Shown: piece after piece, positions 7,256-52,362 of the stretch
Position numbering within the stretch: position 1 is the stretch's first letter
How the letters are laid out: every line of letters starts with the position of its first letter
Source: Nemertoderma westbladi
Taxonomy: Eukaryota > Animalia > Xenacoelomorpha
Length of the DNA stretch: 64,000 nucleotides
Assembly: GCA_032718475.1 (NCBI GenBank)
Contig: JAUCBJ010006822.1
Location: 1 to 64,000, forward strand
Reading direction: 5' to 3'
Program-made: the position numbers and the translations under genes
Notes under the pieces: model-generated
What the model saw: only the letters and a program-made list of their open reading frames with translations
What the model was told of the DNA's origin: nothing
The model's database searches: none

Positions 7256-7503
7256 TTAAAACTATAGATATAGACTATGCAATGTACTAAACATGGTCAT
7301 TTATTTGTAGTTAGAACTCATCTCATATCCGTATCGTTGCACTCAGCCTGCACACCACACCTGTTCACCAAAATATATAACTTACAACCTTCCTTAGCTG
7401 GTACCGATCAAAATGTGGTATTGTTCAATGCGCTAAAGTTCTCCGTTAAAACTGTCCTGGTAGTTTAAAAACCGGTCTTTGCAAGCTGAGTCCGAATTTC
7501 TAG

Positions 7504-8970
7504 TTAGGAACCGAGAGGTTCATTACTGTAAGAATTGTTAGCTGACTGGCTGACTGGCTGGCTGACTGGCTGGCTGATCTACAGCCAAAACTACTCTAAC
7601 GATTTTGATGAAATTTTCACAGCATCTAGATACCGCGATTCTAAGGTCCCTGGTATGTTCCGCTATTTCGTCCATGAGCCGTGGGCTCGAAAAATGGACA
7701 TAAACGAAAAAACGCCATATGCGCAATGGTAAAATAACACCAATAACAGCTGGTGTCGTGATGAAAAATGGCTTATGTAATGGATTTCTACACAAGGCTT
7801 AGTATAAATCGATGAGGTTGCCAAGATTATTGTACTTAGTACACCCATACTGTTTGTTTAGGCCCTGCACTCTCTGTCAAAGCAAATATTAACTGGTTGA
7901 TTTAGTTTGTGGTTCTACACAAGCTTAGTATAAATCGATGAGGCTGCCAACTGGTTGGTTTAGTTTGCAATCTATTACCGCCTCAGCTGAATAACTCTTC
8001 CCCCTGCTGAATGACTATTAGGTATACCGTGTATCGGCTTCTCCCCTTCAGAACATTGTAAAGGGAATTTACTTTAGTTTACTCTACTGTGCCATTCAGC
8101 TGAATGGATTTGAGCGATTGCCAAGTACAGAGTTGGATCATTCTCTGACCATAGGCAAAGACATCAAATCTTTTTAAAAATATACTTTTTCCATGTTTTT
8201 TTTTCTGAACAAAAATTTCAAAAAAAATTTTTCGTAGCCAGTACTGCCAATCGATTCGCCATCAAAAATAACGCAAAAAATTTTTTTTGCAAAATTTTAA
8301 ATTACTGTAAATTTTTGGCGACTGGGGGGGGGGTCAATTTTTTTCGATCCGCTATAACTCCGGAACGCTTTGTCCAAATTCGATGGGGTTTTCATTTTTC
8401 AACTTAATTCGATGTCCTCTTTCAGCCTATCCATGTTTCGAAACCCCCAAACAGCGCCGTTCAAAAATTATTTTTTTCTAGTTCTAGAATTTTACAAATT
8501 TCAAAAAAGTTGCAGTATTTTATTAACGCCTTTACGGAATTCGATAGCGTTTTCGATTTTTATATTAAACGCAATATCCTGAATCTCACTAGCCTAGTTT
8601 CGCGTCACCAATGCCAAGATTTCATACTTTTGAAGAAAATTTTTCTAGAATAATTTTTATTTAATTACATTTATCGCGATTTCTTATTACTGATTGCACA
8701 TGAATTGATGGAGTTTTCAATTAATTAACTAAACACGATATCGCGCATCGCACCAGCGTGGTTTCGAAATTCCAAAACGAGGTCTTCACTAGTTGCAGGT
8801 CGATTTTGTTCTTGAATTGAGCATCTAATAATAGATCGAATTTATTAATAATTATTGTATGAAATATGATTGTATTTTTAGATAATTATTAGTTCTATAC
8901 TAATTCTCGTTGTCTCTTTTATTTAAAATAAAAAGTCGGTTCCTTATCGGGCCGCTAGGCCCGTCACTAG
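7504..8970 (+). mobile_element. Unit 1, type A (A key, A/T-tract body)
   Basis: 5' TTAGGAACCGAGAGGTTC ... 3' TCGGTTCCTTATCGGGCCGCTAGGCCCGTCACTAG. Confidence 0.9.
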
Positions 8971-10466
8971 TTAGCAAGTCGTTAGACTTGATTACTGTAA
9001 GAATTGTTGACTGACTGACTGGCTGGCTGGCTGGCTGACTGGCTGGCTGATCTACAGCCAAAACTACTCTAACGATTTTGATGAAATTTTCACAGCATCT
9101 AGATACCGCGATTCTAAGGTCCCTGGCATGATCGGCTACTCCGTCCATAGCCTCTGGGCTCGAAAAATAGAGATAAACGAAAAAACGCCATAGGCGCAAT
9201 GGTAAAATAACACCAATGACAGCTGGTGTCCTGATGAAAAATGGCTTATGTAATGCATTTCTACACAAGGCTTAGTAATAAATCGATGAGGTTGCCAAGA
9301 TTATTATACTTAGTACACCCATACTGTTTGTTTAGGCCCTAGGACACTCTGTCAAAGCAAATATTAACTGGTTGATTTAGTTTGTGGTTCTACACAGGCT
9401 TAGTATAAATCGGTGAGGCTGCCAACTGGTTGGTTTAGTTTGCAATCTATTACCGCCTCAGCTGAATAACTCTTCCCCCTGCTGAATGACTGTTAGGTAC
9501 AGGTTATTGGCTACATTAATGCCAACATTAATACAGTGGAAGCTGTATGCTTATAAGGTGGAATGTTTACTCAGCCTTATACTGATACTCTGTAAGGTTA
9601 AGACTAACATTATAGTTTGAAATATAAAAATCACTTATTATTATCTGTATTGGGTTAATAATCACTGTGGCATTCAAAATGTTTTATAGGTGATTGACAT
9701 TTAGTGCAAGCTGAATGACTGTTAGTTACAGAGTACTACAGTACTGCACTCTTATTTTATTTTTAAATCTTTCGTCCAACATTAATACTTTGGAGGTTGT
9801 ATGCTTATAAGGCGAATGTTTACTCAGCTTCATACTGATACACTGTAAGGCTAACACTAACGTTATAGTTTAACACATAAAAATCACTGCTTATTATCTG
9901 TATCAGGTTACATACTGTGGCATTCAAAATGTTTAAATGTTTTATAGGTGATTGATATTTAGTGCAAGCTGAATGACTGTAGGTTACAGAGTACTATTGC
10001 ACTGTATTTTATTTTTAAATCTTTTGGCCAACATTAATACTGTGGAGGCTGTATGCTTATAAGGCGGAATGTTTACTCAGCCTCATACTGATACTCTGTA
10101 AGGCTTACACTAACATTATTGTTTGAAATATAAAAATAACTGCTTATTATCTGTATTGGGTTAATCACTGTGGCATTCAAAATGTTTTGTTAGGTGAATG
10201 ACATTTAGTGGCTAAGATTATTCTCTGTCAGATTCCCTTCACACCATAGGCAAACATTGTTGAGGCTGAGGGAATTTACTTTAGTTTACTCTACTGAGTC
10301 ATTCAGCTGAATGGATTTGAGCAATTGCCAAATTACAGAGTGGGATCTCTCTCTGACCATAGATAAATAACACTTCCCTTCTGAACAAAGGTAAACATTG
10401 TTGAGGGAACTTACCTTTGATTGACGACTTCCGACTTGCTTAACGGCGTCTTGACGCCGTCTCTAG
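8971..10466 (+). mobile_element. Unit 2, type B-long (1496 bp, three internal repeats of about 250 bp)
   Basis: 5' TTAGCAAGTCGTTAGACTTG ... 3' CGACTTGCTTAACGGCGTCTTGACGCCGTCTCTAG; internal repeats start near 9523, 9776 and 10028. Confidence 0.9.
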
Positions 10467-10800
10467 TTAGCAAGTCGTAGGACTTGATTACTGTAAGAAT
10501 TGTTGGCTGATTGACTGGCTGGCTGGCTGGCTGACTGGCTGGCTGGCTGGCTGGCTGATCTACAGCCAAAACTACTCTAACGATTTTGATGAAATTTTCA
10601 CAGCGGCTAGATACCGCGATTCTAAGGTCCCTGGTATGTTCCGCTATTTCGTCCATGAGCCGTGGGCTCGAAAAATAGACATAAACGAAAAAACGCCATA
10701 GGCGCAATGGTAAAATAACACCAATGACAGCTTGTTGATGGAATTTACATTTGATTGATGACTTCCGACTTTCTTAACGGCGTCTTGACGCCGTCTCTAG
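10467..10800 (+). mobile_element. Unit 3, type B-short (334 bp)
   Basis: B ends joined to the core only. Confidence 0.9.
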
Positions 10801-12288
10801 TTAGGAACCGAGAGGTTCATTACTGTAAGAATTGTTGGCTGATTGACTGGCTGGCTGGCTGATCTACAGCCAAAACTACTCTAACGATTTTGATGAAATT
10901 TTCACAGCATCTAGATACCGCGATTCTAAGGTCCCTGGTATGATCGGCTACTCCGTCCATAGCCTCTGGGCTCGAAAAATAGAGATAAACGAAAAAACGC
11001 CATAGACGCAATGGTAAAATAACACCCATGACAGCTGGTGTCCTGATGAAAAATGGCTTATGTAATGCATTTCTACACAAGGCTTAGTATAAATCGATGA
11101 GGTTGCCAAGATTATTGTACTTAGTACACCCATACTGTTTGTATAGGCCACCACTCTCTGTCAAAGCAAACATTAACGAGTTGGTTTAGTTTGAAATCTA
11201 ATATCGCCTCAGCTGAATTACTCTTCCCAATGCATTCTATGCGAATATCTCACTCTGCAAAATGTAAGCTGAATGACTCTTACGTACACAGTGAGTTGGC
11301 TACATTAATGCCAACATTATTGCAAAATGTTTTATTGTTGGATTACTCTCTGTCAGTCTCCCCTTCAGAACATTGTATAGGGAATTTACTTTAGTTTACT
11401 CTACTGTGCCATTCAGCTGAATGGATTTGAGCGATTGCCAAGTTACAGAGTTGGATCATTCTCTGACCATAGGCAAAGACATCAAATCTTTTTAAAAATA
11501 TACTTTTTCCATGTTTTTTTTTCTGATCAAAAATTTCAAAAAAAAATTTTTCTTAGCCAGTACTGCCAATCGATTCGCCATCAAAAATAACGCAAAAAAA
11601 TTTTTTTGCAAAATTTTAAATTACTGTAATTTTTGGCGACTGGGGGGGGGTCAATTTTTTTTGATCCGCTATAACTCCGGAACGCTTTGTCCAAATTCGA
11701 TGGGGTTTTCATTTTTCAACTTAATTCGATGTCCTCTTTCAGCCTATCCATGTTTCGAAACCCCAAACAGCGCCGTTCAAAAATAAATTTTTTCTAGTTC
11801 TAGAATTTTACAAATTTCAAAAAAGTTGCAGTATTTTATTAACGCCTTTACGGAATTCGATAGCGTTTTCGATTTTTATATTAAACGCAATATCCTGAAT
11901 CTCACTAGCCTAGTTTCGCGTCACCAATGCCAAGACTTCATACTTTTTGAGGAAAATTTTTCTAGAATAATTTTTATTCAAATTACATTTATCGCGATTT
12001 CTTATTACTGGTTGCACATGAATTGATGGAGTTTTCACTTTATTAACTAAACACGATATCGCGCATCGCACCAGCGTGGTTTCGAAATTCCAAAACGAGG
12101 TCTTCACTAGTTGCAGGTCGAATTTGTTCTAGAATTGAGCATCTAATAATAGATCGAATTTATTAATAATTATTGTATGAAATATGATTGTATTTTTACA
12201 TAATTATTAGTTCTATACTAATTCTCGTTGTTTCTTTTATTTAAAATAAAAAGTCGGTTCCTTATCGGGCCGCTAGGCCCGTCACTAG
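10801..12288 (+). mobile_element. Unit 4, type A
   Basis: A ends; followed by a 12-bp A stub at 12289-12300. Confidence 0.9.
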
Positions 12289-12300
12289 TTAGGAACCGAG

Positions 12301-13796
12301 TTAGCAAGTCGTTAGACTTGATTACTGTAAGAATTGTTGACTGACTGACTGGCTGGCTGGCTGGCTGACTGGCTGGCTGATCTACAGCCAAAACTACTCT
12401 AACGATTTTGATGAAATTTTCACAGCATCTAGATACCGCGATTCTAAGGTCCCTGGCATGATCGGCTACTCCGTCCATAGCCTCTGGGCTCGAAAAATAG
12501 AGATAAACGAAAAAACGCCATAGGCGCAATGGTAAAATAACACCAATGACAGCTGGTGTCCTGATGAAAAATGGCTTATGTAATGCATTTCTACACAAGG
12601 CTTAGTAATAAATCGATGAGGTTGCCAAGATTATTATACTTAGTACACCCATACTGTTTGTTTAGGCCCTAGGACACTCTGTCAAAGCAAATATTAACTG
12701 GTTGATTTAGTTTGTGGTTCTACACAGGCTTAGTATAAATCGGTGAGGCTGCCAACTGGTTGGTTTAGTTTGCAATCTATTACCGCCTCAGCTGAATAAC
12801 TCTTCCCCCTGCTGAATGACTGTTAGGTACAGGTTATTGGCTACATTAATGCCAACATTAATACAGTGGAAGCTGTATGCTTATAAGGTGGAATGTTTAC
12901 TCAGCCTTATACTGATACTCTGTAAGGTTAAGACTAACATTATAGTTTGAAATATAAAAATCACTTATTATTATCTGTATTGGGTTAATAATCACTGTGG
13001 CATTCAAAATGTTTTATAGGTGATTGACATTTAGTGCAAGCTGAATGACTGTTAGTTACAGAGTACTACAGTACTGCACTCTTATTTTATTTTTAAATCT
13101 TTCGTCCAACATTAATACTTTGGAGGTTGTATGCTTATAAGGCGAATGTTTACTCAGCTTCATACTGATACACTGTAAGGCTAACACTAACGTTATAGTT
13201 TAACACATAAAAATCACTGCTTATTATCTGTATCAGGTTACATACTGTGGCATTCAAAATGTTTAAATGTTTTATAGGTGATTGATATTTAGTGCAAGCT
13301 GAATGACTGTAGGTTACAGAGTACTATTGCACTGTATTTTATTTTTAAATCTTTTGGCCAACATTAATACTGTGGAGGCTGTATGCTTATAAGGCGGAAT
13401 GTTTACTCAGCCTCATACTGATACTCTGTAAGGCTTACACTAACATTATTGTTTGAAATATAAAAATAACTGCTTATTATCTGTATTGGGTTAATCACTG
13501 TGGCATTCAAAATGTTTTGTTAGGTGAATGACATTTAGTGGCTAAGATTATTCTCTGTCAGATTCCCTTCACACCATAGGCAAACATTGTTGAGGCTGAG
13601 GGAATTTACTTTAGTTTACTCTACTGAGTCATTCAGCTGAATGGATTTGAGCAATTGCCAAATTACAGAGTGGGATCTCTCTCTGACCATAGATAAATAA
13701 CACTTCCCTTCTGAACAAAGGTAAACATTGTTGAGGGAACTTACCTTTGATTGACGACTTCCGACTTGCTTAACGGCGTCTTGACGCCGTCTCTAG
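12301..13796 (+). mobile_element. Unit 5, type B-long (1496 bp)
   Basis: B ends; appears identical to unit 2. Confidence 0.9.
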
Positions 13797-15406
13797 TTAG
13801 GAACCGAGAGGTTCATTACTGTAAGAATTGCTCGTGGCTGGCTGGCTGGCTGACTGACTGGCTGATCTACAGCCAAAACTACTCTAACGATTTTGATGAA
13901 ATTTTCACAGCGGCTAGATACCGCGATTCTAAGGTCCCTGGAATGTTCCGCTATTTTGTCCATGAGCCGTGGGCTCGAAAAATAGACATAAACGAAAAAA
14001 CGCCATAGGCGCAATGATAAAAACACCAGCTGGCACTCATGAAAAATGCATAGAGATGGCCTAGTAATGCTATTCTATAGGAATGGCCACCTAACAAGGA
14101 AATGCTTTCTCTGCCAAGTATTATCCTCACTCTACAACTCAGACAGTAAGCAAACAAAAGCTGTGGGATTCTAATGTATTACATCATAAGCTGATTGCTC
14201 TCCCAATAGCCCTCACACACTCACTGAATCCAATGAAATCGAATATCTATTAGCTTAATGCGAATAGCTGGTAAGCTGAATGCCATTTTAGTTATTGTGT
14301 ACTGTTGATAGCAGAGTTGACTGCTATGTTGTATGTATTTAATTAAAATAATTTTCGTAGAGGGAAGTTAATTTGGGATTACTTTCTATCAGATGTAAGC
14401 AAAGCTGTTCAATGGGGTGGGTCATGGGACCCAAATATAGTACATTATGCATGGCAAACATTAATAAAATCATTCAGTCAACATGGAGGGTATTTGCTTA
14501 GTTAACTCTACTGTGCGAAAAACGAATTTATAATGTTACCCATACTTCAGGTGAATGAATTTTTAGATATTTGTACTGGAGGCAAGGATTTCTGATATAA
14601 TTAAATATATATTTCGATATTATGTAGTTGCGCCCTTCTAGCAGCACGTGAGATAATCAAGTAATAGACACAATGTTTGACTTTGTCCCTTCAAGCAGCA
14701 CGTGAGTTTTGCTTTGACCCTTCGATATATGTATTTGCGCCCTTCGAGCAGCACGTGAATTACATCAAATAATAGACACATTGTTTAACTTTGTCCCTTC
14801 GAGCAGCACGTGAGTTTTGCTTTGACCCTTCGATATATGTATTTGCGCCCTTCGAGCAGCACGGGGAGTTGACTCAGACCGAGCCGAGCCGAGCCGAGCC
14901 GAGCCGAGCCGAGCCGAGCCGAGCCGAGCCGAGCCGAGCCGAGCCGAGCCGAGCCGAGCCGAGCCGAGCCGAGGCGAGCAAAGCCGAGCCGAGTTGAGCC
15001 GAGCCGAGCCGAGCGGAGCCGAGCCGAGCCGAGCCGAGCCGAGCCGAGCCGAGCCGTGCCGAGCCGAGCCGAGCCGAGCCGAGCCGAGCCGAGCCGAGCC
15101 GAGCCGAGCCGAGCCGAGCCGAGCCGAGCCGAGCCGAGCCGAGCCGAGCCGAGCCGAACCGAGCCGAGCCGAACCGAGCCGAGCCGAGCCGAGCCGAGAC
15201 AAGCCAAGCCAAGCCGAGCCGAGCCGAGCCGAGCCGAGCCGAGCCGAGCCGAGCCGAGCCGAGCCGAGCCGAGCCGAGCCGAACCGAACCAAACCAAACC
15301 GAACCGAGCCGAGCCGAGCCAAATCGTGCAAGACCGAGCCGAGCTCGTTGTCTCTTTTATTTGAAAAAAAATCGGTTCCTTATCGGGCCGCTAGGCCCGT
15401 CACTAG
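13797..15406 (+). mobile_element. Unit 6, type C (A key, CACGTG repeats and (GAGCC)n)
   Basis: A ends with a different body. Confidence 0.9.
14876..15345 (+). repeat. (GAGCC)n pentamer microsatellite inside unit 6
   Basis: Read directly; source of the AEPSR/SARLG ORFs. Confidence 0.98.
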
Positions 15407-16900
15407 TTAGGAACCGAGAGGTTCATTACTGTAAGAATTGTTGGCTGATTGACTGGCTGGCTGACTGGCTGGCTGGCTGGCTGGCTGATCTACAGCCAAA
15501 ACTACTCTAACAATTTTGATGAAATTTTCACAGTGGCTTGATACCGCGATTCGAAGGTCCCTGGTATGTTCCGCTATTTCGTCCATGAGCCGTGGGCTCG
15601 AAAAATAGACATAAACGAAAAAACGCCATTGGTGCAATGGTAAAATATCACCAATAACAGCTGGTGTCGTGATGAAAAATGGCTTATGTAATGGATTTCT
15701 ACACAAGGCTTAGTATAAATCGATGAGGTTGCCAAGATTATTCACTTAGTACACCAATACTGTTTGTTTAGGCCCTATGACACTCTGTCAAAGCAAATAT
15801 TTACTGGTTGGTTTAGTTTGAAATCTATTATTGCCTCAGCTGAATTACTCTTCCCAATGCGCACTCTATGGGAATATCTCCCTCTGCTAATGTAAGCTGA
15901 ATGACTTAAGTACACAGTGTGTTGGCTACATTAATGCCGTTTTATTGTTGGATTACTCTCTGTCAGTCTCCCCTTCAGAACATTGTATAGGGAATTTAAT
16001 TTAGTTTACTCTACTGTGCCATTCAGCTGAATGGATTTGAGCGATTGCCAAGTTACAGAGTTGGATCATTCTCTGACCATAGGCAAAGACATGAAATCTT
16101 TTTAAAAATATACTTTTTCCATGTTTTTTTTTCTGACCAAAAATTTCAAAAAAAAATTTTTCGTAGCCAGTACTGCCAATCGATTCGCCATCAAAAATAA
16201 CGCAAAAATTTTTTTTTGCAAAATTTTAAATTGCTGTAAATTTTTGGCGACTGGGGGGGGGGGTCAATTTTTTTCGATCCGCTATAACTCCGGAACGCTT
16301 TGTCCAAATTCGATGGGGTTTTCATTTTTCAACTTAATTCGACGTCCTCTTTCAGCCTATCCATGTTTCGAAACCCCAAACAGCGCCGTTCAAAAATTGA
16401 TTTTTTCTAGTTCTAGAATTTTACAAATTTCAAAAAAGTTGCAGTATTTTATTAACGCCTTTACGGAATTCGATAGCGTTTTCGATTTTTATATTAAACG
16501 CAATATCCTGAATCTCACTAGCCTAGTTTCGCGTCACCAATGCCAAGACTTCATACTTTTTGAGGAAAATTTTTCTAGAATAATTTTTACTTAATTACAT
16601 TTATCGCGATTTCTTATTACTGCTTGCACATGAATTGATGGAGTTTTCAATTTATTAACTAAACACGATATCGCGCATCGCACCAGCGTGGTTTCGAAAT
16701 TCCAAAACGAGGTCTTCACTAGTTGCAGGTCGATTTTGTTCTAGAATTGAGCAACTAATAATAGATCGAATTTATTAATAATTATTGTATGAAATATGAT
16801 TGTATTTTTACATAATTATTAGTTCTATACTAATTCTCGTTGTCTCTTTTATTTAAAATAAAAAGTCGGTTCCTTATCGGGCCGCTAGGCCCGTCACTAG
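15407..16900 (+). mobile_element. Unit 7, type A
   Basis: A ends and A body. Confidence 0.9.
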
Positions 16901-17234
16901 TTAGCAAGTCGTAGGACTTGATTACTGTAAGAATTGTTGGCTGATTGACTGGCTGGCTGGCTGGCTGACTGGCTGGCTGGCTGGCTGGCTGATCTACAGC
17001 CAAAACTACTCTAACGATTTTGATGAAATTTTCACAGCGGCTAGATACCGCGATTCTAAGGTCCCTGGTATGTTCCGCTATTTCGTCCATGAGCCGTGGG
17101 CTCGAAAAATAGACATAAACGAAAAAACGCCATAGGCGCAATGGTAAAATAACACCAATGACAGCTTGTTGATGGAATTTACATTTGATTGATGACTTCC
17201 GACTTGCTTAACGGCGTCTTGACGCCGTCTCTAG
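16901..17234 (+). mobile_element. Unit 8, type B-short (334 bp)
   Basis: B ends. Confidence 0.9.
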
Positions 17235-18723
17235 TTAGGAACCGAGAGGTTCATTACTGTAAGAATTGCTCGTGACTGACTGACTGACTGGCTGGCTGAT
17301 CTACAGCCAAAACTACTCTAACGATTTTGATGAAATTTTCACAGCGGCTAGATACCGCGATTCTAAGGTCCCTGGTATGTTCCGCTATTTCGTCCATGAG
17401 CCGTGGGCTCGAAAAATAGACATAAACGAAAAAACGCCATAGGCGCAATGGTAAAATAACACCAATAACAGCTGGTGTCGTGATGAAAAATGGCTTATGT
17501 AATGCATTTCTACAGAAGGCTTAGTAATAAATCGATGAGGTTGCCAAGATTATTATACTCAGTACACCCATACTGTTTGTATAGGCCACCACTCTCTGTC
17601 AAAGCAAACATTAACTGGTTGGTTTAGTTTGAAATCTAATATCGCCTCAGCTGAATTACTCTTCCCAATGCAATCTATGGGAATATCTCACTCTGCTAAT
17701 GTAAGCTGAATGACTGTTACGTACACAGTGAGTTGGCTACATTAATGCCAACATTATTGCAAAATGTTTTATTGTTGGATTACTCTCTGTCAGTCTCCCC
17801 TTCAGAACATTGTATAGGGAATTTACTTTAGTTTACTCTACTGTGCCATTCAGCTGAATGGATTTGAGCGATTGCCAAGTTACAGAGTTGGATCATTCTC
17901 TGACCATAGGCAAAGACATCAAATCTTTTTAAAAATATACTTTTTCCATGTTTTTTTTTCTGACCAAAAATTTCAAAAAAAATTTTTCGTAGCCAGTACT
18001 GCCAATCGATTCGCCATCAAAAATAACGCAAAAAATTTTTTTTGCAAAATTTTAAATTACTGTAAATTTTTGGCGACTGGGGGGGGTCAATTTTTTTCGA
18101 TCCGCTATAACTCCGGAACGCTTTGTCCAAATTCGATGGGGTTTTCATTTTTCAACTTAATTCGATGTCCTCTTTCAGCCTATCCATGTTTCGAAACCCC
18201 AAACAGCGCCGTTCAAAAATTAATTTTTTCTAGTTCTAGAATTTTACAAATTTCAAAAAAGTTGCAGTATTTTATTAACGCCTTTACGGAATTCGATAGC
18301 GTTTTCGATTTTTATATTAAACGCAATATCCTGAATCTCACTAGCCTAGTTTCGCGTCACCAATGCCAAGACTTCATACTTTTTGAGGAAAATTTTTCTA
18401 GAATAATTTTTATTTAATTACATTTATCGCGATTTCTTATTACTGGTTGCACATGAATTGATGGAGTTTTCAATTTATTAACTAAACACGATATCGCGCA
18501 TCGCACCAGCGTGGTTTCGAAATTCCAAAACGAGGTCTTCACTAGTTGCAGGTCGATTTTGTTCTAGAATTGAGCAACTAATAATAGATCGAATTTATTA
18601 ATAATTATTGTATGAAATATGATTGTATTTTTACATAATTATTAGTTCTATACTAATTCTCGTTGTCTCTTTTATTTAAAATAAAAAGTCGGTTCCTTAT
18701 CGGGCCGCTAGGCCCGTCACTAG
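17235..18723 (+). mobile_element. Unit 9, type A
   Basis: A ends and A body. Confidence 0.9.
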
Positions 18724-20368
18724 TTAGGAACCGAGAGGTTCATTACTGTAAGAATTGTTAGCTGACTGGCTGACTGACTGGCTGGCTGATCTACAGCCAA
18801 AACTACTCTAACGATTTTGATGAAATTTTCACAGCGGCTAGATACCGCGATTCTAAGGTCCCTGGTATGTTCCGCTATTTCGTCCATGAGCCGTGGGCTC
18901 GAAAAATAGACATAAACGAAAAAACGCCATAGGCGCAATGGTAAAATAACACCAATGACAGCTGGTGTCCTGATGAAAAATGGCTTATGTAATGCATTTC
19001 TACACAAGGCTTAGTATAAATCGATGAGGTTGCCAAGATTATTGTACTTAGTACACCCATACTGTTTGTTTAGGCCCTGCACTCTCTGTCAAAGCAAATA
19101 TTAACTGGTTGATTTAGTTTGTGGTTCTACACAGGCTTAGTATAAATCGATGAGGCTGCCAACTGGTTGGTTTAGTTTGCAATCTATTACCGCCTCAGCT
19201 GAATAACTCTTCCCCCTGCTGAATGACTATTAGGTATACAGTGTATCGGCTACATTAATGCCAACATTAATACTGTGGAGGCTGTATGCTTATAAGGTGG
19301 AATGTTTACTCAGCCTTATACTGATACTCTGTAAGGCTAAGACTAACATTATAGTTTGAAATATAAAAATCACTTCTTGGCTACATTAATGCCAACATTA
19401 TTGCAAAGTGTTTTATTGTTGGATTACTCTCTGTCAGTCTCCCCTTCAGAACATTGTATTGGGAATTTACTTTAGTTTACTCTACTGTGCCATTCAGCTG
19501 AATGGATTTGAGCGATTGCCAAGTTACAGAGTTGGATCATTCTCTGACCATATGCAAAGACATGAAATCTTTTTAAAAATATACTTTTTCCATGTTTTTT
19601 TTTCTGACCTAAAATTTCAAAAAAAAATTTTTCGTAGCCAGTACTGCCAATCGATTCGCCATCAAAAATAACGCAAAAAATTTTTTTTGCAAAATTTTAA
19701 ATTACTGTAAATTTTTGGCGACTGGGGGGGGTCAATTTTTTTCGATCCGCTATAACTCCGGAACGCTTTGTCCAAATTCGATGGGGTTTTCATTTTTCAA
19801 CTTAATTCGATGTCCTCTTTCAGCCTATCCATGTTTCGAAACCCCAAACAGCGCCGTTCAAAAATTAATTTTTTCTAGTTCTAGAATTTTACAAATTTCA
19901 AAAAAGTTGCAGTATTTTATTAACGCCTTTACGGAATTCGATAGCGTTTTCGATTTTTATATTAAACGCAATATCCTGAATCTCAATAGCCTAGTTTCGC
20001 GTCACCAATGCCAAGACTTCATACTTTTTGAGGAAAATTTTTCTAGATTAATTTTTATTTAATTACATTTATCGCGATTTCTTATTACTGGTTGCACATG
20101 AACTGATGGAGTTTTCAATTTATTAACCAAACACGATATCGCGCATCGCACCAGCGTGGTTTCGAAATTCCAAAACGAGGTCTTCACTAGTTGCAGGTCG
20201 ATTTTGTTCTAGAATTGAGCAACTAATAATAGATCAAATTTATTAATAATTATTGTATGAAATATGATTGTATTTTTACATAATTATTAGTTCTATACTA
20301 ATTCTCGTTGTCTCTTTTAATTAAAATAAAAAGTCGGTTCCTTATCGGGCCGCTAGGCCCGTCACTAG
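18724..20368 (+). mobile_element. Unit 10, type A, longer variant carrying part of the B-long body
   Basis: A ends; about 19100-19377 matches the B-long interior. Confidence 0.88.
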
Positions 20369-20701
20369 TTAGCAAGTCGTAGACTTGATTACTGTAAGAA
20401 TTGTTGGCTGATTGACTGGCTGGCTGGCTGGCTGACTGGCTGGCTGGCTGGCTGGCTGATCTACAGCCAAAACTACTCTAACGATTTTGATGAAATTTTC
20501 ACAGCGGCTAGATACCGCGATTCTAAGGTCCCTGGTATGTTCCGCTATTTCGTCCATGAGCCGTGGGCTCGAAAAATAGACATAAACGAAAAAACGCCAT
20601 AGGCGCAATGGTAAAATAACACCAATGACAGCTTGTTGATGGAATTTACATTTGATTGATGACTTCCGACTTGCTTAACGGCGTCTTGACGCCGTCTCTA
20701 G
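20369..20701 (+). mobile_element. Unit 11, type B-short
   Basis: B ends. Confidence 0.9.
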
Positions 20702-20992
20702 TTAGGAACCGAGAGGTTCATTACTGTAAGAATTGTTTGCTGATTGACTGACTGGCTGACTGACTGGCTGGCTGATCTACAGCCAAAACTACTCTAACGA
20801 TTTTGATGAAATTTTCACAGCGGCTAGATACCGCGATTCTAAGGTCCCTGATATGTTCCGCTATTTCGTCCATGAGCCGTGGGCTCGAAAAATAGAGATA
20901 AACGAAAAAACGCCATAGGCGCAATGGTAAAATAACACACCCATGACAGCTGGTGTCCTGATGAAAAATGGCTTATGTAATGCATTTCTACA

Positions 20993-23313
20993 CTAGTGAC
21001 GGGCCTAGCGGCCCGATAAGGAACCGACTTTTTATTTCAAATAAAAGAGACAACGAGCTCGGCTCGGTCTTGCACGATTGGGCACGATTAAGTTCGACTT
21101 GGCTTGATCGGCTCGGCTTGGCTTGGTTCGGCTCGGCTCGGCTCGTTTCGGCTCGGCTCGGCTCGGCTCGGCTCGGCTCGGCTCGGTTCGGCTCGGCTCG
21201 GCTCGGCTCGGCTCGGCTCGGCTCGGCTCGGCACGGCTCGGCTCGGCTCGGCTCGGCTCGGCTCGGCTCGGCTCGGCTCGGCTCGGGTCGGCTCGGCTCG
21301 GCTCGGCTCGGCTCGGCTCGGCTCGGCTCTGCTCGGCTCGGCTTGGCTCGGCTCGGCTCGGCTCGGCTCGGCTCGGCTCGGCTTGGCTCGGCTCGGCTCG
21401 GCTCGGCTCGGCTTGGCTCGGCTCGGCTCGGCTCGGCTCGGCTCGGCTCGGCTCGGCTCGGCTCGGCTCGGCTCGGCTCGGCTCGGCTCGGCTCGGCTCG
21501 GCTCGGCTCGGTTCGGCTCGGCTCGGCTCGGCTCGGCTCGGCTCGGCTCGGCTCGGCTCGGCTCGGCTCGGCTCGGCTCGGCTCGGCTCGGCTCGGCTCG
21601 GCTCGGCTCGGCTCGGCTCGGCTCGGCTCGGCTCGGCTCGGCTCGGCTCGGCTCGGCTCGGCTCGGCTCGGCTCGGCTCGGCTCGGCTCGGCTCGGCTCG
21701 GCTCGGCTCGGCTCGGCTTGGCTCGGCTCGGCTCGGCTCGGCTCGGCTTGGCTCGGCTCGGCTCGGCTCGGCTCCGCTCGGCTCGGCTCGGCTCGGCTCG
21801 GCTCGGCTCGGCTCGGCTCGGCTCGGCTCGGCTCGGCTCGGCTCGGCTCGGTTCGGCTCGGCTCGGCACGGCACGGCTCGGCTCGGCTCGGTTCGGCTCG
21901 GCTCGGCTCGGCTCGGCTCGGCTCGGCTTGGCTCGGCTCGGCTCGGCTCGGCTCGGCTCGGCTCGGCTCGGCTCGGCTCGGCTCGGCTCGGCTCGGCTCG
22001 GCTCGGCTCGGCTCGGCTCGGCTCGGCTCGGCTCGGCTCGGCTCGGCTCGGCTCGGCTCGGCTCGGCTCGGCTTGGCTCGGCTTGGCTTGGCTCGGCTCG
22101 GCTCGGCTCGGCTCGGCTCGGCTCGGCTCCGCTCGGCTCCGCTCGGCTCGGCTCGACTCGGCTCGGCTCGGTCTGAGTCGACTCCCCGTGCTGCTCGAAG
22201 GGCGCAAATACATATATCGAAGGGTCAAAGCAAAACTCACGTGCTGCTCGAAGGGACAAAGTCAAATATCGAAGGGTCAAAGCAAAACTCACGTGCTGCT
22301 CGAAGGGACAAAGTCAAACAATGTGTCTATTATTTGATGTAATTCACGTGCTGCTCGAAGGGCGCAAATACATATATCGAAGGGTCAAAGCAAAACTCAC
22401 GTGCTGCTCGAAGGGACAAAGTCAAACATTGTGTCTATTATTTGATTATCTCACGTGCTGCTAGAAGGGCGCAACTACATATATCGAAACAAGCCCCTGT
22501 CTTGTATTTTAATTATATCAGAAATCCTTGCCTTCAGTACAAATATCTAAAAATTCATTCACCTGAAGTATGGGTAACATTATAAATTCGTTTTTCGCAC
22601 AGTAGAGTTAACTAAGCAAATACCCTCGGTCCAGGTTGACTGAATGATTTTATTAATGTTTGCCATGCATAATGTACTATATTTGGGTCCCATGACCCAC
22701 CCCATTGAACAGCTTTGCTTACATCTGATAGAAAGTAATCCCAAATTAACTTCCCTCTACGAAAATTATTTTAATTAAATACATACAACATAGCAGTCTA
22801 CTCTGCAATCAACAGTACACAATAACTAAAATGGCATTCAGCTTACCAGCTATTCGCATTAAGCTAATAGATATACGATTTCATTCGATTCAGTGAGTGT
22901 GTGAGGGCTATTGGGAGAGCAATCAGCTTATGATGTAATACATTAGAATCCCACGGCTTTTGTTTGCTTACTGTCTGAGTTGTAGAGTGAGGATAATACT
23001 TGGCAGAGAAAGCATTTCCTTGTTAGGTGGCCATTCCTATAGAATAGCATTACTAGGCTTTCTCTATCCATTTTTCATGAGTGCCAGCTGGTGTTTTTAT
23101 CATTGCGCCTATGGCGTTTTTTCGTTTATGTCTATTTTTCGAGCCCAAGGCTCATGGACGAAATAGCGGAACATACCAGGGACCTTAGAATCGCGGTATC
23201 CAGCCGCTGTGAAAATTTCATCAAAATCGTTAGAGTAGTTTTGGCTATAGATTAACCAGCCAGTCAATCAATCAGCCAACAATTCTTACAGTAATGAACC
23301 TCTCGGTTCCTAA
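20993..23313 (-). mobile_element. Inverted complete type C element nested in unit 12
   Basis: Begins CTAGTGACGGGCCTAGCGGCCCG and ends CTCTCGGTTCCTAA, the reverse complements of the A ends. Confidence 0.93.
21055..22175 (-). repeat. (GGCTC)n pentamer tract, about 1.1 kb
   Basis: Read directly. Confidence 0.98.
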
Positions 23314-24678
23314 CAAGGCTTAATATAAATCGATGAGGTTGCCAAGATTATTGTACTTAGTACACCCATACTGTTTGTTTAGGCCCTGCACTCTCTGTCA
23401 AAGCAAATATTAACTGGTTGATTTAGTTTGTGGTTCTACACAGGCTTAGTATAAATCGATGAGGCTGCCAACTGGTTGGTTTAGTTTGCAATCTATTACC
23501 GCCTCAGCTGAATAACTCTACCCCCTGCTGAATGACTATTAGGTATACAGTGTATCGGCTACATTAATGCCAACATTAATACTGTGGAGGCTGTATGCTT
23601 ATAAGGTGGAATGTTTACTCAGCCTTATACTGATACTCTGTAAGGCTAAGACTAACATTATAGTTTGAAATATAAAAATCACTTCTTGGCTACATTAATG
23701 CCAACATTATTGCAAAGTGTTTTATTGTTGGATTACTCTCTGTCAGTCTCCCCTTCAGAACATTGTATTGGGAATTTACTTTAGTTTACTCTACTGTGCC
23801 ATTCAGCTGAATGGATTTGAGCGATTGCCAAGTTACAGAGTTGGATCATTCTCTGACCATATGCAAAGACATGAAATCTTTTTAAAAATATACTTTTTCA
23901 ATGTTTTTTTTTCTGACCTAAAATTTCAAAAAAAAAATTTTCGTAGCCAGTACTGCCAATCGATTCGCCATCAAAAATAACGCAAAAAATTTTTTTTGCA
24001 AAATTTTAAATTACTGTAAATTTTTGGCGACTGGGGGGGGTCAATTTTTTTCGATCCGCTATAACTCCGGAACGCTTTGTCCAAATTCGATGGGGTTTTC
24101 ATTTTTCAACTTAATTCGATGTCCTCTTTCAGCCTATCCATGTTTCGAAACCCCAAACAGCGCCTTTTCAAAAATTAATTTTTTCTAGTTCTAGAATTTT
24201 ACAAATTTCAAAAAAGTTGCAGTATTTTATTAACGCCTTTACGGAATTCGATAACGTTTTCGATTTTTATATTAAACGCAATATCCTGAATCTCAATAGC
24301 CTAGTTTCGCGTCACCAATGCCAAGATTTCATACTTTTTGAGGAAAATTTTTCTAGATTAATATTTATTTAATTACATTTATCGCGATTTCTTATTACTG
24401 GTTGCACATGAACTGATGGAGTTTTCAATTTATTAACCAAACACGATATCGCGCATCGCACCAGCGTGGTTTCGAAATTCCAAAACGAGGTCTTCACTAG
24501 TTGCAGGTCGATTTTGTTCTAGAATTGAGCAACTAATAATAGATCAAATTTATTAATAATTATTGTATGAAATATGATTGTATTTTTACATAATTATTAG
24601 TTCTATACTAATTCTCGTTGTCTCTTTTATTTAAAATAAAAAGTCGGTTCCTTATCGGGCCGCTAGGCCCGTCACTAG

Positions 24679-26182
24679 TTAGGAACCGAGAGGTTCATTA
24701 CTGTAAGAATTGTTGGCTGATTGATTGACTGGCTGGCTGACTGACTGGCTGATCTACAGCCAAAACTACTCTAACGATTTTGATGAAATTTTCACAGTGG
24801 CTTGATACCGCGATTCTAAGGTCCCTGGTATGTTCCGCTATTTCGTCCATGAGCCGTGGGCTCGAAAAATAGACATAAACGAAAAAACGCCATAGGCGCA
24901 ATGGTAAAATAACACCAATGACAGCTGGTGTCATGATGAAAAATGACTTATGTAATGCATTTCTACAGAAGGCTTAGTATAAATCGATGAGGTTGCCAAG
25001 ATTATTGTACTTAGTACACCCATACTGTTTGTTTAGGCCCTGCCAAAGCAAATATAAACTGGTTGGTTTAGTTTGAAATCTATTATTGCCTCAGCTGAAT
25101 AACTCTTCCCAATGCATTCTAGTTGAGTATCCAAGTTTCTCCCTCTGCTAATGTAAGCTGAATGACGGTTTAGTACACAGTGTGTTGGCTACATTAATGC
25201 CAACATTCTTGCAAAATGTTTTATTGTTGGATTACTCTCTGTCAGTCTCCCCTTCAGAACATTGTATAGGGAATTTACTTTAGTTTACTCTACTGTGCCA
25301 TTCAGCTGAATGGATTTGAGCGATTGCCAAGTTACAGAGTTGGATCATTCTCTGACCATAGGCAAAGACATCAAATCTTGTTAAAAATATACTTTTTCCA
25401 TGTTTTTTTTTCTGACCAAAAATTAAAAAAAAATTTTTTCGTAGCCAGTACTGCCAATCGATTCGCCATCAAAAATAACGCCAAAAAATTTTTTGCAAAA
25501 TTTTAAATTACTGTAAATTTTTGGTGGCGACTGGGGGGGGGGGGTCAATTTTTTTCGATCCGCTATAACTCCGGAACGCTTTGTCCAAATTCGATGGGGT
25601 TTTCATTTTTCAACTTAATTCGATGTCCTCTTTCAGCCTATCCATGTTTCGAAACCCCAAACAGCGCCGTTCAAAAATTAATTTTTTCTAGTTCTAGAAT
25701 TTTACAAATTTCAAAAAAGTTGCAGTATTTTATTAACGCCTTTACGGAATTCGATAGCGTTTTCGATTTTTATATTAAACGCAATATCCTGAATCTCACT
25801 AGCCTAGTTTCGCGCTCACCAATGCCAAGACTTCATACTTTTTGAGGAAAATTTTTCTAGAATAATTTTTATTTAATTACATTTATCGCGATTTCTTATT
25901 ACTGGTTGCACATGAATTGATGGAGTTTTCAATTTATTAACTAAACACGATATCGCGCATCGCACCAGCGTGGTTTCGAAATTCCAAAACGAGGTCTTCA
26001 CTAGTTGCAGGTCGATTTTGTTCTAGAATTGAGCAACTAATAATAGATCGAATTTATTAATAATTATTGTATGAAATATGATTGTATTTTTACATAATTA
26101 TTAGTTCTATACTAATTCTCGTTGTCTCTTTTATTTAAAATAAAAAGTCGGTTCCTTATCGGGCCGCTAGGCCCGTCACTAG
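24679..26182 (+). mobile_element. Unit 13, type A
   Basis: A ends and A body. Confidence 0.9.
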
Positions 26183-27669
26183 TTAGCAAGTCGTTAGACT
26201 TGATTACTGTAAGAATTGTTAGCTGACTGACTGACTGGCTGACTGACTGGCTGGCTGATCTACAGCCAAAACTGCTCTAACGATTTTGATGAAATTTTCA
26301 CAGCATCTAGATACCGCGATTCTAAGGTCCCTGGCATGATCGGCTACTCCGTCCATAGCCTCTGGGCTCGAAAAATAGAGATAAACGAAAAAAACGCCAT
26401 AGGCGCAATGGTAAAATAACACCCATGACAGCTGGTGTCCTGATGAAAAATGGCTTATGTAATGCATTTCTACACAAGGCTTAGTATAAATCGATGAGGT
26501 TGCCAAGAGTATTGTACTTAGTACACCCATACTGTTTGTTTAGGCCCTGCACTCTCTGTCAAAGCAAATATTAACTGGTTGATTTAGTTTGTGGTTCTAC
26601 ACAGGCTTAGTATAAATCGATGAGGCTGCCAACTGGTTGGTTTAGTTTGCAATCTATTACCGCCTCAGCTGAATAACTCTTCCCCCTGCTGAATGACTAT
26701 TAGGTATACAGTGTATCGGCTACATTAATGCCAACATTAATACTGTGGAGGCTGTATGCTTATAAGGTGGAATGTTTACTCAGCCTTATACTGATACTCT
26801 GTAAGGCTAAGACTAACATTATAGTTTGAAATATAAAAATCACTTCTTATTATCTGTATTGGGTTAATAATCACTGTGGCATTCAAAATGTTTTATAGGT
26901 GATTGACATTTAGTGCAAGCTGAATGACTGTTAGTTACAGAGTACTACTGCACTGTATTTTATTTTTAAATCTTTCGTCCAACATTAATACTTTGGAGGT
27001 TGTATGCTTATAAGGCGAATGTTTACTCAGCTTCATACTGATACACTGTAAGGCTAACACTAACGTTATAGTTTAAAACATAAAAATCACTGCTTATTAT
27101 CTGTATCAGGTTACACACTGTGGCATTCAAAATGTTTAAATGTTTTATAGGTGATTGATATTTAGTGCAAGCTGAATGACTGTAGGTTACAGAGTACTAT
27201 TGCACTGTATTTTATTTTTAAATCTTTTGGCCAACATTAATACTGTGGAGGCTGTATGCTTATAAGGCGGAATGTTTACTCAGCCTCATACTGATACTCT
27301 GTAAGGCTTACACTAACATTATAGTTTGAAATATAAAAATAACTGCTTATTATCTGTATTGGGTTAATCACTGTGGCATTCAAAATGTTTTGTTAGGTGA
27401 ATGACATTTAGTGGCTAAGATTATTCTCTGTCAGATTCCCTTCACACCATAGGCAAACATTGTTGAGGCTGAGGGAATTTACTTTAGTTTACTCTACTGA
27501 GTCATTCAGCTGAATGGATTTGAGCAATTGCCAAATTACAGAGTGGGATCTCTCTCTGACCATAGGTAAATAACACTTCCCTTCTGAACATAGGTAAACA
27601 TTGTTGAGGGAACTTACCTTTGATTGACGACTTCCGACTTGCTTAACGGCGTCTTGACGCCGTCTCTAG
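26183..27669 (+). mobile_element. Unit 14, type B-long variant
   Basis: B ends; several substitutions relative to units 2 and 5. Confidence 0.9.
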
Positions 27670-29155
27670 TTAGGAACCGAGAGGTTCATTACTGTAAGAA
27701 TTGCTCGTGGCTGACTGGCTGACTGGCTGGCTGATCTACAGCCAAAACTACTCTAACGATTTTGATGAAATTTTCACAGCATCTAGATACCGCGATTCTA
27801 AGGTCCCTGGCATGATCGGCTACTCCGTCCATAGCCTCTGGGCTCGAAAAATAGAGATAAACGAAAAAACGCCATAGGCGCAATAGTAAAATAACACCAA
27901 TGACAGCTGGTGTCCTGATGAAAAATGGCTTATGTAATGCATTTCTACACAAGGCTTAGTATAAATCGATGAGGTTGCCAAGATTATTATACTCAGTACA
28001 CCCATACTGTTTGTATAGGCCACCACTCTCTGTCAAAGCAAACATTAACTCGTTGGTTTAGTTTGAAATCTAATATCGCCTCAGCTGAATTACTCTTCCC
28101 AATGCGTTCTATGGGAATATCTCACTCTGCTAATGTAAGCTGAATGACTTAAGTACACAGTGCGTTGGCTACATTAATGCCAACATTATTGCAAAATGTT
28201 TTATTGTTGGAATACTCTCTGTCAGTCTCCCCTTCAGAACATTGTATAGGGAATTTACTTTAGTTTACTCTACTGTGCCATTCAGCTGAATGGATTTGAG
28301 CGATTGCCAAGTACAGAGTTGGATCATTCTCTGACCATAGGCAAAGACATCAAATCTTTTTAAAAATATACTTTTTCCATGTTTTTTTTTCTGACCAAAA
28401 ATTTCAAAAAAAAATTTTCGTAGCCAGTACTGCCAATCGATTCGCCATCAAAAATAACGCAAAAAATTTTTTTTGCAAAATTTTAAATTACTGTAAATTT
28501 TTGGCGACTGGGGGGGGTAAATTTTTTTCGATCCGCTATAACTCCTGAACGCTTTGTCCAAATTCGATGGGGTTTTCATTTTTAAACTTAATTCGATGTC
28601 CTCTTTCAGCCTATCCATGTTTCGAAACCCCAAACAGCGCCGTTCAAAAATTAATTTTTTCTAGTTCTAGAATTTTACAAATTTCAAAAAAGTTGCAGTA
28701 TTTTATTAACGCCTTTACGGAATTCGATAGCGTTTTCGATTTTTATATTAAACGCAATATCCTGAATCTCACTAGCCTAGTTTCGCGTCACCAATGCCAA
28801 GACTTCATACTTTTTGAGGAAAATTTTTCTAGAATAATTTTTATTTAATTACATTTATCGCGATTTCTTATTACTGGTTGCACATGAATTGATGGAGTTT
28901 TCAATTTATTAACTAAACACGATATCGCGCATCGCACCAGCGTGGTTTCGAAATTCCAAAACGAGGTCTTCACTAGTTGCAGGTCGATTTTGTTCTAGAA
29001 TTGAGCAACTAATAATAGATCGAATTTATTAATAATTATTGTATGAAATATGATTGTATTTTTACATAATTATTAGTTCTATACTAATTCTCGTTGTCTC
29101 TTTTATATTAAAATAAAAAGTCGGTTCCTTATCGGGCCGCTAGGCCCGTCACTAG
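27670..29155 (+). mobile_element. Unit 15, type A
   Basis: A ends and A body. Confidence 0.9.
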
Positions 29156-31366
29156 TTAGGAACCGAGAGGTTCATTACTGTAAGAATTGCTCGAGACTGG
29201 CTGGCTGGACTGACTGACTGACTGACTGATCTACAGCCAAAACTACTCTAACGATTTTGATGAAATTTTCACAGCGGCTAGATACCGCGATTCTAAGGTC
29301 CCTGGTATGTTCCGCTATTTCGTCCATGAGCCGTGGGCTCGAAAAATAGACATAAACGAAAAAACGCCATAGGCGCAATGATAAAAACACCAGCTGGCAC
29401 TCATGAAAAATGGATAGAGATGGCCTAGTAATGCTATTCTATAGGAATGGCCACCTAACAAGGAAATGCTTTCTGTGCCAAGTATTATCCTCACTCTACA
29501 ACTCAGACAGTGAGCAAACATAAGCTGTGGGCTTCTAATGTATTACATCATAAGCTGATTGCTCTCCCAATAGCCCTCACACACTCACTGAATCGAATGA
29601 AATCGAATATCTATTAGCTTAATGCGAATAGCTGGTAAGCTGAATGCCATTTTAGTTATTGTGTACTGTTGACTGTAGAGTTGACTGCCATGTTGTATGT
29701 ATTTAATTAAAATAATTTTCGTAGAGGGAAGTTAATTTGGGATTACTCTCTATCAGATGTAAGCAATGGGGTGGGTCATGGGACCCAAATATAGTACATT
29801 ATGCATATGCAGGGCAAACATTAATAAAATCATTCAGTCAACCTGAAGGGTATTTGCTTTAGTTAACTACTGTGTGAAAAGCGAATTTATGATGTTACCC
29901 ATACTTCAGGTAAATGAATTTTTAGATATTTTGTACTGAAGGCAAGGATTTCTGATATAATTAAAATACAAGACAGGGGCTTGTTTCGATATATGTAGTT
30001 GCGCCCTTCGAGCAACACGTGAGTTAATCAAATATTAGACACAATGTTTGAGTTGTCCCTTCGAGCAGCACGTGAGTTTGGCTTTGACCCTTCGATATAT
30101 GTATTTGCGCCCTTCGAGCAGCACGTGAGTTACATCAAATAATAGACACACTGTTTGACTTTGTCCCTTCGAGCAGCACGTGAGTTTTGCTTTGACCCTT
30201 GATATATGATGTTGTGCCCTTCGAGCAGCACGTGAGTTACATCAAATAATAGACACACTGTTTGACTTTGTCCCTTCGAGCAGCACGTGAGTTTGGCTTT
30301 GACCCTTCCAGCAGCATGTGTCAATCGAGCCGAATCATACCGATCGAGCCGAATAGAACCAATCGAGGCGATCAAGCCGAGTCGAGCCCAATCGAGCCGA
30401 ACGGAGCCGAGTTGAGCCCAATCAAGCCGAGCGAGCCAGACTGAGCCGATTCAAGCCCAATCGAGTCGAGTCGAGCCCAATAGAGCCGAGTCGAGCCCAA
30501 TCAATCCTAGTCGAGCCCAATTGAGCCGGACTGGGCCAAGTCGAGCCCAATCGAGCCAGACTGTGCCAAGTTGAGCCAAATCGAACCGGGTCAAGCCCAA
30601 TCAATCCCAATCGAGCCGAGTTGAGCGGATTGAGCCGAATCGAGCCCAATTGAGCCAAGTCGAGCCGGACCGAGCCAAGTCGAACCGAATCGAGCCGATT
30701 GAGCCGAATCGAGCTGAGTCGACTCAGACCGAGCTGAGCCGAAACCAATCGAGCCGAGTCGAGCCGTGACATGCCAAATTGAGCCGGACTGAGTCGAGTC
30801 AAGACCAATCAAGCCGAGTCGAGCCCAATCGATCCGGACGGAGCCGAGTTGAGCCTAATCAAGCCGAGTCGAGCCCGACTGAGCCGAGTTAAGCCCAATC
30901 GAACCGAGTCGAGCCCAATAGAGCCGAGTAGAGCCCAATCAAGCCTAGTCGAGCCCAATTGAGCCGGACCAAGCCCAGTCGAGCCGGACTGAGCCAAGTT
31001 GAGCCAAATCGAGCCGAGTCAAGCCCAATTAATCCCAATCGAGCCGATTCAAGCCCAATCGAGCCGAGTCGAGACCAATCGAGCCCAATCGAGCCGATTC
31101 AAGCCCAATCGAGCCGAGTCGAGACCAATCGAGCCGAGTCGAGCCCAATTGAGCCAAGTCAAGCCGAACCAAGCCGAGTCGAACCCAATCAAGCCGATTG
31201 AGCCGAATCGAGCTGAGTCGAGTCGAGCCCAATCGAGCCAAACCGAGCCGATCAAGCCAAGTCGAACTGAATCGAGCCCAATCATGCCAGACCGAGCCGA
31301 GCTCGTTGTCTCCTTTATTTGAAATAAAAAGTCGGTTCCTTATCGGGCCGCTAGGCCCGTCACTAG
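29156..31366 (+). mobile_element. Unit 16, type C with degenerate pentamer tract
   Basis: A ends, C body; about 30323-31305 is a mosaic of CGAGC/CCAAT/CGAGT/CAAGC pentamers. Confidence 0.9.
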
Positions 31367-35800: not shown

Positions 35801-35889
35801 ATAATTATTAGTTCTATACTAATTCTCGTTGTCTCTTTTATTTAAAATAAAAAGTCGGTTCCTTATCGGGCCGCTAGGCCCGTCACTAG
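32862..35889 (+). mobile_element. Unit 18, type A, interrupted by an inverted B-long copy
   Basis: Removing 33160-34655 restores GCTTAGTAA|TAAATCG. Confidence 0.9.
33160..34655 (-). mobile_element. Inverted complete B-long element (1496 bp) nested in unit 18
   Basis: Begins CTAGAGACGGCGTCAAGACGCCGT and ends CTAACGACTTGCTAA; no TSD. Confidence 0.93.
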
Positions 35890-38888: not shown

Positions 38889-39222
38889 TTAGCAAGTCGT
38901 AGGACTTGATTACTGTAAGAATTGTTGGCTGATTGACTGGCTGGCTGGCTGGCTGACTGGCTGGCTGGCTGGCTGGCTGATCTACAGCCAAAACTACTCT
39001 AACGATTTTGATGAAATTTTCACAGCGGCTAGATACCGCGATTCTAAGGTCCCTGGTATGTTCCGCTATTTCGTCCATGAGCCGTGGGCTCGAAAAATAG
39101 ACATAAACGAAAAAACGCCATAGGCGCAATGGTAAAATAACACCAATGACAGCTTGTTGATGGAATTTACATTTGATTGATGACTTCCGACTTGCTTAAC
39201 GGCGTCTTGACGCCGTCTCTAG
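38889..39222 (+). mobile_element. Unit 21, type B-short (334 bp)
   Basis: B ends. Confidence 0.9.
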
Positions 39223-52358: not shown

Positions 52359-52362
52359 TTAA

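Follow-up and report, generated by a model that had tools for sequence, protein, structure and literature searches.

The window, that is, the whole stretch of DNA analyzed here, spans 64,000 nt of the Nemertoderma westbladi assembly GCA_032718475.1 (contig JAUCBJ010006822.1, positions 1 to 64,000, forward strand), and from 7504 to 44519 it holds an array in which 25 HLE2/HINE-like elements, all of them complete and without coding capacity, are arranged head to tail (Table 1). The units are 333–2321 nt long and belong to six subfamilies (A1, 13 copies; A1-long, two; A2, two; B1, three; B-short, four; B3, one) that carry two types of ends, denoted A and B. Beyond the 25 units, the array contains a 12-nt stub and two nested copies in inverted orientation, which brings the number of elements with complete ends to 27. 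The common plan of these elements includes a 5' TT, a subterminal repeat (subTIR) that doubles as a 5' hairpin, and then a 4-nt microsatellite; in the 3' part, the subTIR appears again and is followed by a hairpin rich in GC and by the terminal CTAG. All 27 elements begin with TT and bear subTIRs, which form pairs of 10–11 bp, and the type of the 5' copy agrees with that of the 3' copy in every case (27 of 27). The open reading frames (ORFs) within the units are either short or derived from the microsatellites. The microsatellite of the A2 elements has a 5-nt period (CCGAG) and very unequal lengths (14879–15320, 21108–22171 and 30323–31283), and these elements additionally carry 108-bp repeats; the B1 elements bear 253-bp repeats.

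The 3' ends of the elements are strongly structured: the three that were folded give z-scores from -3.4 to -4.4, with none of 200 shuffled sequences folding as well, and the two subTIRs that meet where one A element adjoins another are predicted to form a duplex spanning the nick site (-15.4 kcal/mol, z -4.1). A search of positions 6900–11000 against Rfam yielded no match. The second unit, U02, is identical over 1496 nt to U05 (12301–13796) and to the inverted nested copy at 33160–34655, with different neighbors each time. Neither terminal unit of the array has a close relative, and the same is true of 10 of the 25 units overall. The element family is clearly abundant, given that summed contig depth, which is not equivalent to copy number, reaches 1e4–4e5 on the element compared to approximately 30–300 on the flank.

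A Pfam scan of five of the 44 long ORFs, all located in the flanks, detected no transposase; it identified a reverse transcriptase (5346–6953), an endonuclease (53897–55165) and a Pao/BEL retrotransposon polyprotein (59454–63998). The flanks also contain a near-perfect 28-bp tandem repeat with 34 copies (1032–1994), a diverged tandem repeat of 162–164 bp (52890–53606) and an imperfect MITE-like palindrome (7110–7240), where contig depth is several-fold above that of the adjoining flank.

Table 1. Coordinates of the array, of its individual elements and of the flanking host sequence within the window
Feature	Position	Strand	Remarks
Left flank, low-copy	7270..7474	.	one ~85% paralog in runs X1–X3
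Founder-site host CTAG, 5' of the insertion point	7500..7503	+	first element begins at 7504
Array of 25 HLE2/HINE-like units in head-to-tail order, complete and non-coding	7504..44519	all +	six subfamilies
First unit, U01, type A	7504..8970	+	5' TT; subTIR with 5' hairpin 7505-7521
U01 microsatellite, ACTG/GCTG	7541-7577	+	
U01 3' subTIR	8936-8946	+	GC hairpin 8948-8963; CTAG 8967-8970
U02, type B1	8971..10466	+	
Stub of a type A 5' end, 12 nt, ending CGAG	12289..12300	+	before U05
Nested inverted A2 element in U12	20993..23313	-	inserted at CTTG^T without duplication
Nested inverted B1 element in U18	33160..34655	-	inserted at TTTA^T without duplication
Last unit, U25, B3	43199..44519	+	A-type 3' hairpin combined with B-type subTIRs; no relative within the window
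Founder-site right half, first base T	44520..44529	+	second CTAG^T, unused, at 44525-44529

The founder site and its empty allele

The first-pass annotation had described the left flank as unique DNA that ends in CTAG without an upstream hairpin or subTIR, and the right flank as opening with TCTACC, so that the site of the first insertion would itself mimic the end of the element. Most of this description holds. The terminal CTAG of the last element ends at 44519 and TCTACC follows from 44520; the 60 nt upstream of 7504 fold no better than shuffled sequences (z 0.42; 130 of 200 shuffles are as good); and a search of both flanks detected neither subTIRs nor similarity to the elements, nor any further ends of the hairpin-CTRR^T form. 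The term "unique" is too strong, given the single paralog of the flank (Table 1), although the region is low-copy and does not resemble the end of an abundant element.

The empty allele, the search for which was proposed in the same annotation, was found in public sequencing data. Four runs (X1–X4, at most three samples) were compared with positions 7236–7520 at 80% likeness; X2 and X3 represent one sample, denoted S2. In each of these two runs, two contigs match the flank through 7504 and then depart from it, contig depth being 0 at 7506–7520, and no S2 contig matched here continues from the flank into the element. The 30-letter consensus of both loose ends agrees with positions 44521–44550 at 20 of 30 letters, better than with any other place in the window on both strands, and the mismatches are distributed unevenly, all 10 falling in the 16 G/T columns and leaving the 14 A/C columns intact (P 2.7e-4). 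This pattern is what an alphabetical tie-break between two differing contigs would produce if one of them is the right flank of the window; such a tie-break rule is undocumented, and we infer it from the pattern itself. The letters deducible for the second contig fit the right flank at a 3-nt shift (8 of 12, P 0.01), so that we probably see here the same flank in a diverged form. Thus, an empty site with CTAG^T exists in S2, probably in two diverged versions, and the retention of CTAG^T in both contigs, one of them diverged, suggests that the CTAG is old host sequence. Run X1 contains the filled junction and may be the source of the window, whereas X4 covers a short motif only.

Several further observations pertain to this region. 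One of the S2 contigs matches 7395–7504 with a single difference and has other letters, including a CTAG, before 7395, which is perhaps another insertion polymorphism. A joint on opposite strands, from 7362 to 8968, ties flank-like sequence to an element end in X1, X2 and X3; its orientation is ambiguous, and having two possible readings and being absent from the second contig comparison, it was set aside as evidence. In the contig comparison with U01, among the matches listed (24 of 499 merged loose-end rows), at least three X4 contigs read CTAG, then T, and then diverge, and at least two X1 contigs enter an A-type start via a CTAG located behind an element-like end.

In the flanks, the fraction of T sites that read CTAG^T is 0.0019, so that the match at the founder site would be unlikely if a T alone were required; nevertheless, a single site that was spotted post hoc proves little. 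CTAG is under-represented in the flanks (1–7503 and 44520–64000), with 57 occurrences observed against 98 expected from base composition.

Acceptor sites and growth of the array

Apart from the founder site, the first-pass annotation listed three acceptor sites, CTTG^T at 23313, TTTA^T at 34655 and CGAG at 12300, two of them within one mismatch of CTAG. The former two are clean: excision of the nested copies restores exactly the host sequence known from other units, which indicates that CTTG^T and TTTA^T are real acceptors and that CTAG is a part of the element. Interpretation of CTAG as a 4-bp target duplication is ruled out because the nested copies have it at the 3' end only. The site at 12300 does not count as an acceptor since the inserted unit, U05, is followed on its right by another complete A-type element start, so that excision of U05 would leave two consecutive element starts, an arrangement unique within the window. 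The 12-nt stub may stem from an aborted transfer, which left a 5' piece ending at the CTAG-like word CGAG, from a permuted read-through circle that was opened again at CTAG, or from duplication of 12 nt. Once this site is dropped, the claimed resemblance to CTAG shrinks to one of two nested sites (chance of at least one, P 0.08).

There are therefore three usable non-junction acceptor sites (the founder site, 23313 and 34655), and CTAG is present at one of them only. Neither nested site has an upstream hairpin. The match to the junction octamer is no better than chance for the two nested sites (6 of 14, P 0.12) and reaches 10 of 21 for all three (P 0.02). Both nested copies lie on the same strand and, in terms of homologous host position, within approximately 12 nt of each other (P ~0.008), a hotspot that is unexplained by junction mimicry. 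The segment involved is common to A and B elements and is present twice in many units.

The joints within the array are uniform, all 24 being exact CTAG^TTAG end-to-start junctions, one of which includes the 12-nt stub. An IS91-like tetranucleotide rule, under which CTAG^T and its near matches are the target and each inserted end supplies a new CTAG^T, could in principle build such an array on its own. In its favor, CTAG^T is matched exactly at the founder site and as CTTG^T at one of the nested sites, a CTAG weight of 20- to 200-fold fits the three sites 17–54 times better than no weight (likelihood ratio), and the targets of IS91 are reported to resemble its own ter cleavage tetranucleotide (bioRxiv 10.1101/2025.01.24.634351, in the part available). 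The units themselves provide the counterevidence. They contain 45 CTAG^T on the same strand and 42 on the opposite strand, and, with the exclusion of the 17 opposite-strand occurrences that are A-type ends read backwards, 70 are truly internal (45 and 25, respectively). None of these 70 has been used, against 24 of 24 insertions at junctions, whereas a model in which all CTAG^T are equal expects from 14 (same strand) to 18 (both strands) of the 24 later insertions to be internal (across 5000 random build orders, the probability of none is no more than 1e-5.6). Furthermore, neither nested copy is inserted at a CTAG^T, the CGAG site has to be discounted as an acceptor, and no insertion has occurred at the second CTAG^T, located 9 nt away from the founder site. 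A four-letter rule thus cannot account for the array; as the sole cause it is refuted, and we assign it next to no probability. The whole element end or the whole junction must matter for targeting. Of the IS91-like preference invoked in the first-pass annotation, what stands is the resemblance of the founder site to the element end, and the analogy is a fair lead for that site; as the cause of the array, it fails.

The junctions would be silent on target choice if the array was produced by rolling-circle concatemers, transposition of blocks or unequal crossing-over, and tandem arrays of Helitrons are usually attributed to rolling-circle replication (PMC12628747, PMC11934779, in the parts consulted). 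U10 and U12, which are nearest relatives (0.8%), lie on either side of one short unit, and young A1 units cluster weakly at the right (P 0.02; Mantel P 0.10). An age gradient is not significant. Against this origin, there are no identical neighboring units; joints between A and B account for 13 of the 24, and joints between different subfamilies for 19; and neighbors from the same subfamily number five compared to 7.1 expected at random and differ by 17–30 substitutions. Heterotypic joints cannot arise from a rolling circle on one template, so that, together with the lack of identical neighbors, they indicate that the array is not a rolling-circle concatemer. The units are also complete, in contrast to the 3'-truncated plant concatemers (PMC12628747, available part). 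No multi-unit block with matching partners recurs within the array, and the neighbors differ for each of the four B-short copies (0–1 substitutions once the first 100 nt are excluded). Homologous recombination via common internal sequence would yield chimeras, and no A/B crossover chimeras were detected among the 27 elements, so that one-by-one insertion at ends fits best. We consider an origin of the array by concatemers, blocks or crossing-over improbable; the weak clustering of A1 units leaves room for what may be some local copying. Most likely, the array was built by single copies inserting successively at the ends of resident elements.

A different possibility is that the founder site has its CTAG by coincidence or as a relic, left by an older element in the form of an eroded end or a footprint, and that the array grew through structure or transposase bound at the ends, without sequence mimicry. 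The founder site is a single case noticed after the fact, and the nested hotspot shows that insertion can be steered by features other than CTAG. In addition, the similarity of the ~85% paralog seems to stop at the founder site, where a 20-nt gap is followed by a 7-nt match ending at 7501 (P 0.004) and then by divergence, which is why a worn relic has to be considered. On its own, this alignment is insufficient for a footprint, as it adds only two matching letters beyond a gap that was placed freely. The absence of a hairpin and subTIR upstream speaks against a relic, as do the low contig depth of the flank (28–240 in most bins even at 80% likeness, with a maximum of 440 at a short shared motif, compared to 1e4–4e5 on the element) and the retention of CTAG^T in both S2 contigs, one of which is diverged. 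On balance, we regard coincidence or a relic as unlikely, albeit with appreciable weight. The reading of the left flank as a decayed 3' end, which the first-pass annotation had named as a danger to its own interpretation, is accordingly weakened by the lack of a hairpin or subTIR and by the low copy number, and retains the support of the paralog.

Relation to known systems and a candidate mechanism

The comparisons in this section are with the parts of the published descriptions that were available. The reported target sites are A^T for HLE1 and T^T for HLE2 (PMC11417382, PMC10288648). The elements of the array share with HINE/DINE-1-like HLE2 the subTIRs (typically ~11–15 bp), a 5' inverted repeat overlapping the subTIR, the 4-nt microsatellite, internal tandem repeats, a 3' stem-loop after the subTIR, the lack of target duplication and the non-coding character (PMC4067079, PMC7492417, PMC11417382). 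Duplications are indeed absent at the founder site and both nested sites, the 12-nt stub being the one unexplained exception. The differences are the CTAG terminus in place of a T-run (PMC4067079, PMC7492417, PMC11417382), the targets, two of which are G^T and the third A^T instead of T^T, and the long mixed head-to-tail array. At most one of the three sites could be read as T^T by shifting an ambiguous T. Of the HLE1 features, the 3' hairpin and CTRR are present, whereas the 5' end is not TC, subTIRs are present, and A^T is found at one of the three non-junction sites. The ends, 5' TT and 3' CTAG, are those of proto-Helentrons, for which a RepHel of the Helentron group lacking an endonuclease is also characteristic (PMC4067079). 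In particular, proto-Helentron-Pi of Phytophthora infestans has the same ends and no target duplication, but combines them with a Helitron-like structure, A^T targets and a RepHel gene (PMC4067079), in contrast to the subTIRs, the lack of coding capacity and the single A^T among three sites here. These elements are Helentron-like but lack the T^T target, and we therefore do not classify them as plain HINEs.

Membership in the IS91 family is rejected as well. The insertion point of IS91 lies beside a tetranucleotide that is akin to the one cleaved at ter, and the likeness extends to HUH rolling-circle logic and the lack of duplication (bioRxiv 10.1101/2025.01.24.634351). If its targets CTTG and CTCG are read on the engaged bottom strand, they would, in our reading, become CAAG and CGAG, near CTAG. 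The match to the element's own terminus is exact at the founder site and one mismatch off at one nested site, among three sites in all. Unlike IS91, which is prokaryotic and autonomous and follows a strict tetranucleotide (bioRxiv 10.1101/2025.01.24.634351), the elements described here do not require CTAG (two of three sites lack it), nor is CTAG sufficient (0 of 70). They are not prokaryotic elements encoding a Y2 transposase, and the Pao/BEL retrotransposon and reverse transcriptase ORFs in the flanks identify the host as a eukaryote. The 5'-end pattern had no matches in metagenome, viral or prokaryote contigs, and the 3'-end pattern had none in viral contigs; five metagenome matches of the latter were attributed to chance, being GC-rich (58–66%) and lacking subTIRs and similarity to the units.

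Target preferences longer than two bases are known in HLE2: those of FoHeli1/2 and Helitron2 are TNAT^ and TTTT^, and self-insertion has been discussed, but the hosts are fungal or algal and tandem copies number at most three (PMC5148889). To us, these preferences appear to resemble the T-rich 3' ends of the elements. Exact CTAG-to-5' junctions are found between adjacent Helitrons in maize, where the elements are dissimilar (PMC2267711), and in Helraiser circles (PMC4778049). These are HLE1 systems with 5' TC, A^T targets and two elements (PMC2267711, PMC4778049), compared to 25 elements of six subfamilies here, with the unused CTAG^T as an internal control. Reviewed sources of tandem arrays include multiple insertion at one site and truncated concatemers (PMC12628747). 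The available portions of PMC4224331, PMC12001565, PMC13404089, PMC11934779, PMC13085455 and PMC3879986 contain no comparable target rule, and neither a long mixed head-to-tail HINE array nor a CTAG^T target rule figures in the titles and abstract openings surveyed, which mostly come from outside the subscription journals. CTAG-ending HINEs may figure in the termini tables of PMC4067079 and PMC7492417. Head-to-tail insertion of Helitrons is thus already known, and it is the scale of the array and the structure of the ends for which the literature searched, in the parts available, offers no precedent.

We hypothesize that single copies stacked up at a host CTAG^T by inserting at the ends of resident elements, which a trans-acting HUH (RepHel) transposase took for a circle junction, and consider this scenario to be rather more probable than its negation. 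An autonomous HLE2 partner located elsewhere in the genome would provide RepHel, and the elements would move as circles bearing a CTAG^TT junction. By analogy with Helraiser, whose circles contain exact CTAG-to-5' junctions and whose transposase is modelled to cut circle and target alike (PMC4778049, available part), the HLE2 RepHel could nick the donor junction and the target with the same site. Because a genomic element junction resembles the circle junction, the best substrate would be a junction-like target (3' hairpin, CTAG^T, 5' hairpin), with bare CTAG^T being a weak substrate and any N^T a poor one; the part recognized at the junction could be the 3' end, the 5' start or both. The founder CTAG^T would then be half of a junction, a partial mimic that was either mildly favored or struck by chance. 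Even a chance strike would have seeded the stack because the first insertion created a junction-like CTAG^TTAG site. In maize, dissimilar Helitrons likewise meet at a G/T junction, which was read as the result of consecutive insertion (PMC2267711, available part).

Beyond this locus, a more general proposal, which we put forward tentatively and as somewhat doubtful, is that, in an animal HLE2 lineage possessing subTIRs and a CTAG terminus, the element end itself serves as the attachment site, with an IS91-like preference graded from the junction, by far the strongest, through CTAG^T to any T, so that a host CTAG^T seeds mixed arrays, in which several subfamilies accumulate insertion by insertion. 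Tandem arrays are commonly credited to concatemers, and with respect to the target choice of Helitron-like transposases beyond two bases, the locus described here separates the options: precise junctions were used 24 times, a bare CTAG^T within the units never, and a different sample confirms the founder site as empty. Were junction targeting to hold throughout the genome, it would explain mixed arrays, provide a harmless landing site and tie the target choice of HLE2 to that of IS91. If the graded preference for the element's own end is real, it would amount to a concatemer-free path from a transposon to satellite-like DNA, with arrays of tens of kilobases, and to a naturally site-selective eukaryotic HUH integrase.
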